Source: Candidatus Nealsonbacteria bacterium
Lineage (GTDB): Bacteria > Patescibacteriota > Minisyncoccia > Minisyncoccales > RBG-13-36-15
Direction of reading: 5' to 3'
Assembly: GCA_011050465.1 (NCBI GenBank)
Contig: DRFQ01000010.1
Span: forward strand, 15,514 to 79,513
DNA: 64,000 bases
Position numbers and translations under genes: made by a program. Positions 34,901 through 35,609 of the stretch are shown here, piece after piece. Within the stretch, counting starts at the first letter, position 1, and each line of letters starts with the position of its first letter. A model generated the notes under the pieces. The model was not told the origin of the DNA. It made no database searches and saw only the letters and a list, made by a program, of their open reading frames with translations.

Positions 34901-35609
34901 AGGAGAGGTGGTAGAGATTACTCCGGAACGAATTATTAAAATAAGGAAGAAAGGCCAGAAAACCCCACACCAGAACCCCAAAGGAAAGCCTTCGGCTTCC
35001 TACGGGGCAGGCAAGTTCGGCGCGGGGCAGGTAGAAAAGAAACAGAAAAAATCAGTGGCAGAAATAGTTGAATATGAAATTCCTGCTCCAAATCCTATTT
35101 TAATTAACCCAGGCAATGAAGTGAAAATAGGCCAACAACTTTCCGAGGGCAGCATTGATCTAAAAGAGCTTTTTAAATTAACCAACCAAAGAGAAACCCA
35201 GAGATATATCGTTAAAGAAATTCAAAACATTTATGTTTCTCAAGGAGCAATTATTCATGATAAACATATTGAAGTAATAGTTAGACAAATGTTTTCCCGG
35301 GTTAGGATTAAAGACGAAGGAGACAGCGGTTTTTCGGCAGGAGAAGTTGTTGAGAAAGGATACCTGTTTGAGGAAAATCTAAGATTAAGAAAAGAGAACA
35401 AAAAACCTGCTACTTTTCAGCCTATTCTTTTGGGTATTTCAAAGGTTGCCTTAACCACAGATTCATTTTTGTCAGCTGCTTCCTTCCAGGAAACTTCCCG
35501 GGTTTTAATTAAAGCAGCTATTGAGGGCAAAAAAGATAGGTTAAGGGGTCTTAAAGAAAATGTAATTATCGGGAAACTTATTCCAGCCGGTACCGGTTTT
35601 CGAAAATAG
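31968..35609 (+). CDS. rpoC: DNA-directed RNA polymerase subunit beta'
   Basis: 1213 aa. [20 protein letters not shown] zinc motif, [12 protein letters not shown] catalytic motif. Confidence 0.97.
   Translation: [1213 protein letters not shown]

Follow-up and report, generated by a model that had tools for sequence, protein, structure and literature searches.

A 36-nucleotide palindromic repeat carried in frame in rpoC and ligA of a Nealsonbacteria genome and found at many other loci in Patescibacteria

Palindromic repeats that settle inside protein-coding genes are known from several kinds of genome. Among the Rickettsia palindromic elements (RPEs), RPE-1 is ~100-150 nt long and is restricted to Rickettsia. 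In yeast mitochondria, the GC clusters and byps are GC-rich hairpin repeats that have invaded the coding regions of a small, AT-rich genome, where the byps break the reading frame and are bypassed. In IS608, an insertion sequence (IS), an imperfect hairpin with an extrahelical base is the recognition feature. Repetitive extragenic palindromic sequences (REPs) have been reported inside genes for ligase, uvrA/B, polymerases and aminoacyl-tRNA synthetases, and RPE-4 and RPE-6 of Rickettsia have been classed as REPs (Di Nocera et al. 2013, PMC3733652). Here we describe a 36-nt hairpin element in a 64,000-nt stretch of a Candidatus Nealsonbacteria genome (contig DRFQ01000010.1, positions 15,514 to 79,513; hereafter the window), two copies of which lie in frame in the essential genes rpoC and ligA.

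A sequence-only reading of the window had pointed to stretches at 34970-35015 in rpoC and 22950-22994 in ligA that share 36 of 45 positions. Both are found there, the ungapped identity is as it counted (36/45, and also 34/40), and both fall within long open reading frames (ORFs) in the same codon phase. The unit they share is not the proposed 45 nt; it measures 36 nt (CCCC..CAGG), or 12 codons, on the common plan CCCC-RAA-[18-nt hairpin with bulged A]-TAC-GGGG-CAGG. Because the G+C content of the window is 37.6%, the two stretches stand out as GC islands. With at most one mismatch, TACGGGGCAG occurs 10 times in the window against 1.19 expected, and none of 100 shuffles contained a match to the 37-mer. 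Run on the window without filters, a covariance model based on 73 copies recovers nine copies in the 64 kb, or about 1 per 7 kb, a density that is lower elsewhere; more than 200 further loci were found in other sequences. A mere chance likeness of two GC-rich stretches has their short length in its favour and nothing else, and is refuted by the shuffles, the covariance-model E values and the hundreds of further copies; we regard it as negligible.

The copies form one family with a common fold. Aligned window copies, and then 73 copies from many genomes, give the plan AA, CCCC, GAA, 2 bp, bulged A, 5 bp, 3-nt loop, 5 bp, 2 bp, TAC, GGGG, CAGG. The outer clamp, CCCC/GGGG, is thus 4 bp, the internal loop GAA/TAC is 3x3, the inner hairpin is 7 bp with a conserved bulged A and a 3-nt loop that is mostly TTC, and the tail is CAGG. 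The two halves of the clamp always stand 24 nt apart. Across several candidate phyla neither the outer motif nor the bulged A varies, whereas the inner stem does. All seven inner pairs are changed on both sides somewhere in the set of 73 copies, which had been filtered for pairing (177 cells versus 53 in shuffles), and in the same filtered set the inner stem is paired at 96%, versus 29-57% when the partner is slid. A second sample of 117 copies, taken with no pairing filter, has at least six of the seven inner pairs in 104 (89%) and an A as the bulged base in 109. At the foot of the hairpin stands GTA, which reads TAC on the sense strand; the search patterns required TAC, and the window copies all have TAC or AAC. 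The fourth base of a GTAG would be the first stem base, which is G in only ~55% of the 73 copies. The hairpin that the sequence-only reading drew for both genes is sound for the rpoC copy (DNA fold -8.2 kcal/mol), whereas the copy in ligA has decayed and no longer folds (-0.5 kcal/mol, z +1.3).

In rpoC, the 36-nt element follows the AA of a split AAC/AAN codon, so that its peptide is (N) plus 12 residues. It is not the whole of the insert, as had been supposed; the actual insert is a nested composite of 69 nt, the outer part of which is a degenerate 33-nt short variant, CCCC-ACA-CCAGAA/CAAGTTCGG-CGC-GGGG-CAGG (the slash marks the junction), with the inner unit sitting in its loop. A nested form of this kind is also present at locus L039. 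The insert is missing from 120 of 120 RpoC relatives. Its site is a hypervariable, Lys-rich loop of ~3 to >40 residues across relatives, and maps between residues 1290 and 1301 of the Thermus thermophilus beta' subunit. That the insertion point in rpoC is a loop is predicted by an AlphaFold model, in which fragment residues 119-147 have a predicted local distance difference test (pLDDT) score below 50 and no secondary structure, between flanking strands with pLDDT above 90. The site, hypervariable and predicted to be a low-confidence loop, is probably one that tolerates inserts. Another Parcubacteria rpoC (locus L031, 7097-7138) carries the element at a different site, corresponding to window 32444-32457, near RpoC residue 159, where the window rpoC is empty.

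The ligA gene carries the element at two sites, of which the sequence-only reading had seen one. At site 1, in the adenylation domain, the insert splits the Lys codon of the conserved GQKTH, and orthologs read D-L-G-Q-K-T-H where the window reads D-L-S-R-N-[..]-R-T-H. Removal of the 36 nt restores an AAA Lys codon. The peptide is (N)PKRRPSISYGA(R), with the longer readout SRNPKRRPSISYGART, and there is an exact 12-residue gap opposite it in 59 of 59 orthologs (up to 67% identical). Closest relatives are distant at both genes, the best protein hits for RpoC and LigA being only 67-68% identical. The comparison with orthologs could have shown homologous residues at these positions in distant bacteria; instead, the inserts are missing from all the LigA and RpoC relatives compared. 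Site 2, noticed through a weak covariance-model hit at 23738-23789, holds a long variant of the form CCCC-GCA-[33-nt hairpin]-TAC-GGAG-CAAG (peptide LLRRPSPQRLERSVLRG; DNA fold -17.9 kcal/mol, z -4.5) before a motif that reads GFAEKSA in the window. Insertion at site 2 is common to at least eight genomes, and the standard 36-nt element occupies it at loci L057, L082, L043, L163, L171, L177 and L194; E. coli LigA lacks it.

The element enters as a block. Filled and empty orthologous sites in related genomes differ by exactly 36 nt (12 codons). The TGT gene is the clearest case, with L088, L016 and L001 filled and L055 empty (...TCAAA/CCT..., the slash marking an exact 36-nt gap). There is no target-site duplication in the filled/empty alignments, and the pairs L055 versus L016 and L056 versus L068 show the 36-nt gap with no repeated flank. 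The target is weak: in the 117 copies with flanks not fixed by the search pattern, position -1 is A in 79 (68%) and position +1 is C in 81 (69%), the commonest form being AA/C, so that only about 1-2 nt are specified. All nine window copies have A at -1, and the 3' flanks in the sample of 117 are A-rich. Intergenic copies show no orientation bias, 20 being co-oriented with both neighbours versus 15 opposed, and an orientation-specific RNA function was rejected on that account. Nor is the element an intrinsic terminator, as it has no T run, its 3' flanks are A-rich and a scan of the copy between rpoC and ftsK gave 0 terminator-like sites.

Reading frames are preserved by the intragenic copies. 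Copies inside long ORFs with conserved sequence on both sides number 43 of 108 and 48 of 117 (57 of 108 in another count), or about 40-50%, and all are open and of 3n length. Their frames are biased (19:4:4 and 22:15:3 in two samples), the dominant sense frame being x-P-E-x6-Y-G-A-G (19/27 and 22/40), followed by x-P-K/N-..-T-G-Q-A; antisense copies read L-P-R-R..L-R-G-F or P-A-P-Y..G-F. As a rule the unit comes after AA, so that in its most frequent frame an AAN codon is broken up into AAC...GGN, in keeping with the Lys-rich loops that hold copies. The most frequent hosts are class I aminoacyl-tRNA synthetases (6), the NAD-dependent ligase (5) and TGT (4), joined by Toprim proteins, SMC/RecN-like proteins, Fpg, RNA polymerase beta', TsaD and helicases; the LeuRS site is common to L025 and L071. 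For each insert, both sides align to orthologs and to solved structures, and the host protein is intact. Given the open frames, the 3n length and the frame bias, the intragenic copies are likely translated.

A scan of genomes for the exact pattern, with one genome per species, gave 92 loci, ~75 of them titled Patescibacteria. The titles include Nomura-, Nealson-, Sung-, Komeili- and Andersenbacteria, Paceibacterota, Minisyncoccia and many metagenome-assembled genomes that a pipeline labelled Saccharibacteria (a label only). Komeilibacteria are placed by NCBI as a candidate phylum of the Parcubacteria group, to which we take the other named groups to belong as well. The hairpin is present in 71 of the 92 loci, and matches from clearly different phyla are mostly without it. 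A scan of metagenomes, with a pattern in which the flanks were not fixed, gave at least 120 loci, which together with the genome loci are almost all from Patescibacteria. Searches of Rfam returned only tRNAs at gathering score and nothing relevant up to E = 10, and no description of the motif in Patescibacteria was found in open-access papers or preprints, or in Rfam.

It seems probable (roughly 0.6) that the element belongs with the REP/RPE-type repeats, as a small, non-autonomous palindrome proper to Patescibacteria, and that copies landing in tolerant loops are translated. The reasons are the discrete gain or loss of 36 nt, the missing target duplication, the weak target, the extrahelical base, the GTA, the nesting and the many copies. 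Family, fold, block insertion and frame preservation are shown directly: the 36-nt unit enters DNA as a discrete piece after an A, without duplicating its target. Because 36 nt is 12 codons, any such insertion keeps the reading frame, and copies that land in tolerant, often Lys-rich surface loops would survive and be translated. The rpoC and ligA copies would be two such survivors, the one a nested double and the other decaying. The least certain step is movement, which may proceed through a folded single strand and a hairpin-specific enzyme acting in trans, most plausibly of the Y1/HUH (RAYT-like) type. Movement as a single strand would explain the missing target duplication, the extrahelical base, the GTA at the hairpin foot and the liking for hairpin loops. 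By analogy with the systems cited, a Y1/HUH protein is the candidate mobilising enzyme, and the element may well be selfish, as the sequence-only reading held.

Several observations weigh against a REP/RPE-like repeat. RAYT-like Y1 transposases do occur in these bacteria; they were found by motif, reach 37 bits with Pfam Y1_Tnp and have 2404 homologs at 70-80% identity under Parcubacteria-type names. However, they score 39 bits against the NCBIfam model REP_Tyr_transpos, for which the cut-off is 80, and the genes (at L018, L092, L093 and L094) are bracketed by a different hairpin, AGCAAGG-ACTAC-CCTTGCT. The nearest copy of the element is 0.5-2.9 kb away or absent, and there is no clear enrichment of such genes near copies, with four independent cases in 1.5 Mb. 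A link between these genes and the element was rejected on both grounds, so that membership in a REP/RAYT system is not established. Orthologous copies are ~88-98% conserved, versus ~50-84% for their coding flanks, in properly registered pairs, a difference that motif-based ascertainment inflates; that copies are better kept than flanks suggests either gene conversion or site-by-site selection for the sequence or its fold. The covariation of the inner stem could also arise from template-switch correction of palindromes, without selection. Within the window, inner stems differ from copy to copy, which speaks for copies of some age whose form has been maintained and against a recent burst. A phage vector was considered and rejected: two patterns gave 0 matches in 2.9 million viral contigs, and no vector for spread between lineages is therefore in sight. 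Finally, translation of the intragenic copies is something we infer from their reading frames.

Much of this could be accommodated if the element were instead a structured RNA or single-stranded DNA motif selected by the host, bound by a conserved protein of Patescibacteria and kept by purifying selection, with mobility secondary. It might stabilise or process mRNA, supply promoters or serve in replication. The invariance of the outer motif and bulged A across candidate phyla, the strong covariation of the inner stem and the better conservation of copies than flanks in TGT, LeuRS and the LigA helix-hairpin-helix site all fit, as do the ligA site 2 copy that at least eight genomes have in common, the copy that supplies a -35 box and the 12 copies in a conserved, tRNA-linked T-arm context described below. 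Such a function is hard to square with copies that lie in both orientations to flanking genes (20 same, 15 opposite) and at unrelated places in unrelated ORFs, with clean presence and absence between close relatives, with decayed copies such as that at ligA site 1 and with the lack of an Rfam family. We consider a host-selected motif unlikely, yet the leading alternative.

The uptake sequences of Neisseria and Haemophilus also occur in frame in genome-maintenance genes, and the window is rich in genes for type IV pili and competence, so the element might be a comparable tag for DNA uptake. DNA uptake sequences are a fixed duplex word of 9-12 nt present at ~1 per kb, whereas here the density is low (~1 per 7 kb in the window and lower elsewhere), conservation applies to a fold, the stem of which varies, and not to a fixed word, and insertion is a discrete 36-nt event; an uptake tag is therefore very improbable. 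Bypassed GC-rich hairpin inserts are known in yeast mitochondria, and it may be asked whether the element is a mini-intron or translational bypass element, the peptides of which are never made. Group I introns are common in tRNA genes of Patescibacteria (PMC13011429), which lends this some background. However, if the insert were removed, the intragenic copies would have no need to be 3n long, stop-free and frame-biased, as they are, and they have no ribozyme or bulge-helix-bulge features and nothing in Rfam; removal before or during translation is very improbable.

Measured against the described systems, the element is closest to the GTAG-type REPs, with which it has in common an imperfect palindrome of 20-40 nt, multiple occurrence within a genome, an arrangement as single copies or occasionally as an inverted pair and some in-frame intragenic copies in similar hosts. 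The GTA at its hairpin foot on one strand resembles the GTAG that REPs carry immediately beside the stem. It differs in that ~40-50% of copies are intragenic, whereas intragenic REPs are a small minority of sequences that are mainly extragenic and downstream of genes. Its tag lies inside an extra 4-bp outer clamp, with only GTA constant; although its inner stem varies, several candidate phyla have one and the same outer motif; and, unlike in a REPtron, the RAYT-like genes here are flanked by another hairpin. The Rickettsia elements, to which the sequence-only reading compared it, are likewise palindromes; in a reduced genome they interrupt housekeeping genes in frame and add peptide segments to proteins that are not destroyed by them. 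That likeness is one of behaviour alone; the size (36 nt) and the hosts (Patescibacteria) set the element apart, and REPs are the nearer match by both length and shape. With IS200/IS605 and RAYT systems it shares the lack of target duplication and an imperfect hairpin with an extrahelical base, but it encodes nothing and has one hairpin instead of distinct left and right ends. Those systems insert 3' of a specific short target; the preference seen here, of ~1-2 nt, is much weaker than a tetranucleotide. In contrast to the yeast byps, all copies keep frame. REP and RPE elements, including intragenic ones, are thus already known; what is new is the host group, a 12-codon unit framed by an outer clamp, the large fraction of copies inside genes, conservation from one candidate phylum to another and the copies in T loops.

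These last are the 12 loci (L009, L020, L021, L022, L027, L064, L067, L102, L123, L167, L198 and L213) at which the unit is immediately preceded by the last G of a 5-bp stem and immediately followed by a TTCRAWY loop, a position equivalent to G53/T54 of a tRNA 3' half. The surrounding fragment comprises variable loop, T arm and the 3' strand of the acceptor, that is, the other stem strand, 7 nt and a discriminator A, and usually lies 10-45 nt after a complete tRNA (tRNA-Val in six cases). No 5' half was found at any of the 12. A tRNA intron was rejected, as excision in silico gave no tRNA and no tmRNA call, and so was an integrase attachment site, as there is no integrase and the neighbours are ordinary housekeeping genes. 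Tentatively, the element could be one half of a conserved Patescibacteria system rather than a decaying parasite only. A trans-acting machine would keep recognising the hairpin, perhaps in a manner linked to the tRNA T arm, and outer motif, bulged A and fold would for that reason have been retained across candidate phyla and within essential genes. Such a system would represent, if real, a mobile or maintained DNA/RNA element of a new class that has an enzyme of its own, and the element would gain in importance if the tRNA-linked copies prove functional. Separately, one tRNA gene at L017 contains a group I intron (1421-1654; Rfam, 63.5 bits), which is ~110 nt from a copy of the element and is consistent with the frequency of such introns in Patescibacteria.

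The hairpins beside the RAYT-like genes, (G/C)AGCAAGG-ACTAC-CCTTGCT(C/T), are at 3397-3417 and 4122-4142 of L092, 5831-5851 and 6563-6583 of L018, and 9952-9972 and 10682-10702 of L093. They have GTAG/CTAC in the loop, in a REPtron-like arrangement. At L010, two inverted copies 1.3 kb apart, with 204-nt inverted repeats, had the look of an insertion sequence; they enclose a gene for a thrombospondin-repeat protein, not a transposase.

The genomes of Patescibacteria are among the smallest and most streamlined, and yet the window has several GC-rich hairpin families in rpoC, ligA, uvrA, uvrC, recG and pilD. A unit of 12 codons that keeps frame is a simple route to survival for a repeat in a genome that is ~90% coding. 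Core enzymes would acquire new surface loops from the element, which also accounts for puzzling inserts that annotators and structure predictors will come across in these proteins. Contigs of the Parcubacteria group can be recognised cheaply by its sequence, and it points to a hairpin-recognising activity conserved across that group. Its copies in the window are collected in Table 1.

Table 1. Copies of the element and two of their host ORFs in the window, with scores of the covariance model (CM)
Feature	Position	Strand	Remarks
Intergenic copy before pilin	18158-18193 (model span 18156-18197)	- (antisense)	CM 48 bits
pilD copy, 39 nt, in frame	19021-19059 (model span 19019-19063)	- (antisense)	CM 30 bits; peptide LLAPLKSRGDFFSGF
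Pilin ORF copy	19818-19853 (model span 19814-19855)	+	CM 31 bits; 5' end of ORF 19796-20386
Intergenic copy	21710-21745 (model span 21706-21747)	+	CM 20.5 bits
LigA ORF	22189-24369	+	Alignment to solved structures on both sides of insert
ligA site 1, decayed 36-nt element	22956-22991	+	Adenylation domain; CM 40 bits, E 1e-10
ligA site 2, long variant, 51 nt/17 codons	23739-23789	- (antisense)	Before GF(G/A)EKSA helix-hairpin-helix motif
RpoC ORF	31968-35609	+	Alignment to solved structures on both sides of insert
Composite rpoC insert, 69 nt	34963-35031	+	23 codons, RpoC residues 999-1022
Inner 36-nt element in rpoC	34976-35011	+	CCCC-AAA-GGAAAGCCTTCGGCTTCC-TAC-GGGG-CAGG; CM 66 bits, E 6e-19
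Intergenic copy after rpoC	35617-35652	+	CM 54 bits
Degenerate partner copy	46421-46460	+	CCCC-GAA-...-TAC-GGGG-CA; CM 21 bits
Intergenic copy	46489-46524 (model span 46487-46528)	-	CM 53 bits; between glucose-6-phosphate isomerase gene and tRNA-Leu

The three non-coding relatives that the sequence-only reading listed (the copies after rpoC, beside tRNA-Leu and upstream of a pilin start) are real, and its list lacked the in-frame copies in pilD and at ligA site 2. The copy after rpoC begins 8 nt past the last base of the stop codon. Its 3' arm contains a -35-like TCGACA, followed after 17 nt by TG-TATAAT, before ftsK; window 35633-35661 thus resembles a strong sigma-70 promoter (11 of 12 matches), with the -35 box within the copy. 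The copy beside tRNA-Leu and the degenerate partner form a tail-to-tail pair. The copy at 18158, which had been placed in a pilin leader, is upstream of position 18208, where the pilin probably starts (in the long ORF, Pfam N_methyl is matched from residue 72 on), and it is the copy at 19818 that lies in a leader ORF.

The ORF at 18895-19740 that hosts the pilD copy (DNA fold z -4.3) encodes a prepilin peptidase with the Pfam domains A24_N_bact and Peptidase_A24. In the pilin ORF 19796-20386, where Pfam N_methyl covers residues 22-45, the copy would be read in another frame, TPKRNQRFLTGQA, within a 24-residue leader, since no start codon intervenes between the copy and G-1 of GFTLIELL. Either the element is translated in this leader (cleavage site G-1/F+1), or the gene is a pseudogene. 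The copy at 21710 has the same inner stem as that at 19818 and lies within an 82-nt duplicated block that includes AACAATG word repeats; in this paralogous block, 21684-21765, an ATG follows the element.

Arrays of the 8-nt words TACATTGC / AACAATGT occupy intergenic positions 802-917, 39554-39653, 19770-19812 and 21684-21706 of the window, and two of them are directly upstream of element copies before pilin genes. Short word repeats peculiar to each genome, such as CCAAATT, ACAAAAT and CGCGGAACT, likewise flank the element elsewhere.

Other GC-rich repeats are present in the window as well. A third hairpin family, CCAGNACCGAGC..GCTCTGGTNCTGG, occurs both between and within genes, at 7046-7074, 46150-46178, 46196-46224, 50272-50300 and 58998-59026. 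It is similar to the long inner hairpin at ligA site 2 (CCGAGC..GCTCGG), a hint that one family is nested in another. A second, unrelated GC-rich repeat of 87 nt is found in uvrA (56282-56368, + gene) and uvrC (50235-50321, - gene); the two copies are 83% complementary, so that each is sense to its own gene, and both are read in one frame as KPSTRA(K/E)PSTRA...GAGP. Further GC-rich hairpin blocks lie in uvrC (50124-50327, 50749-50803, 51129-51199 and 51563-51631), in recG (6839-6906 and 7046-7081) and in the gene for a TPR protein (27352-27386). The block in uvrC amounts to ~68 residues between the RNase H-like domain and the C-terminus.

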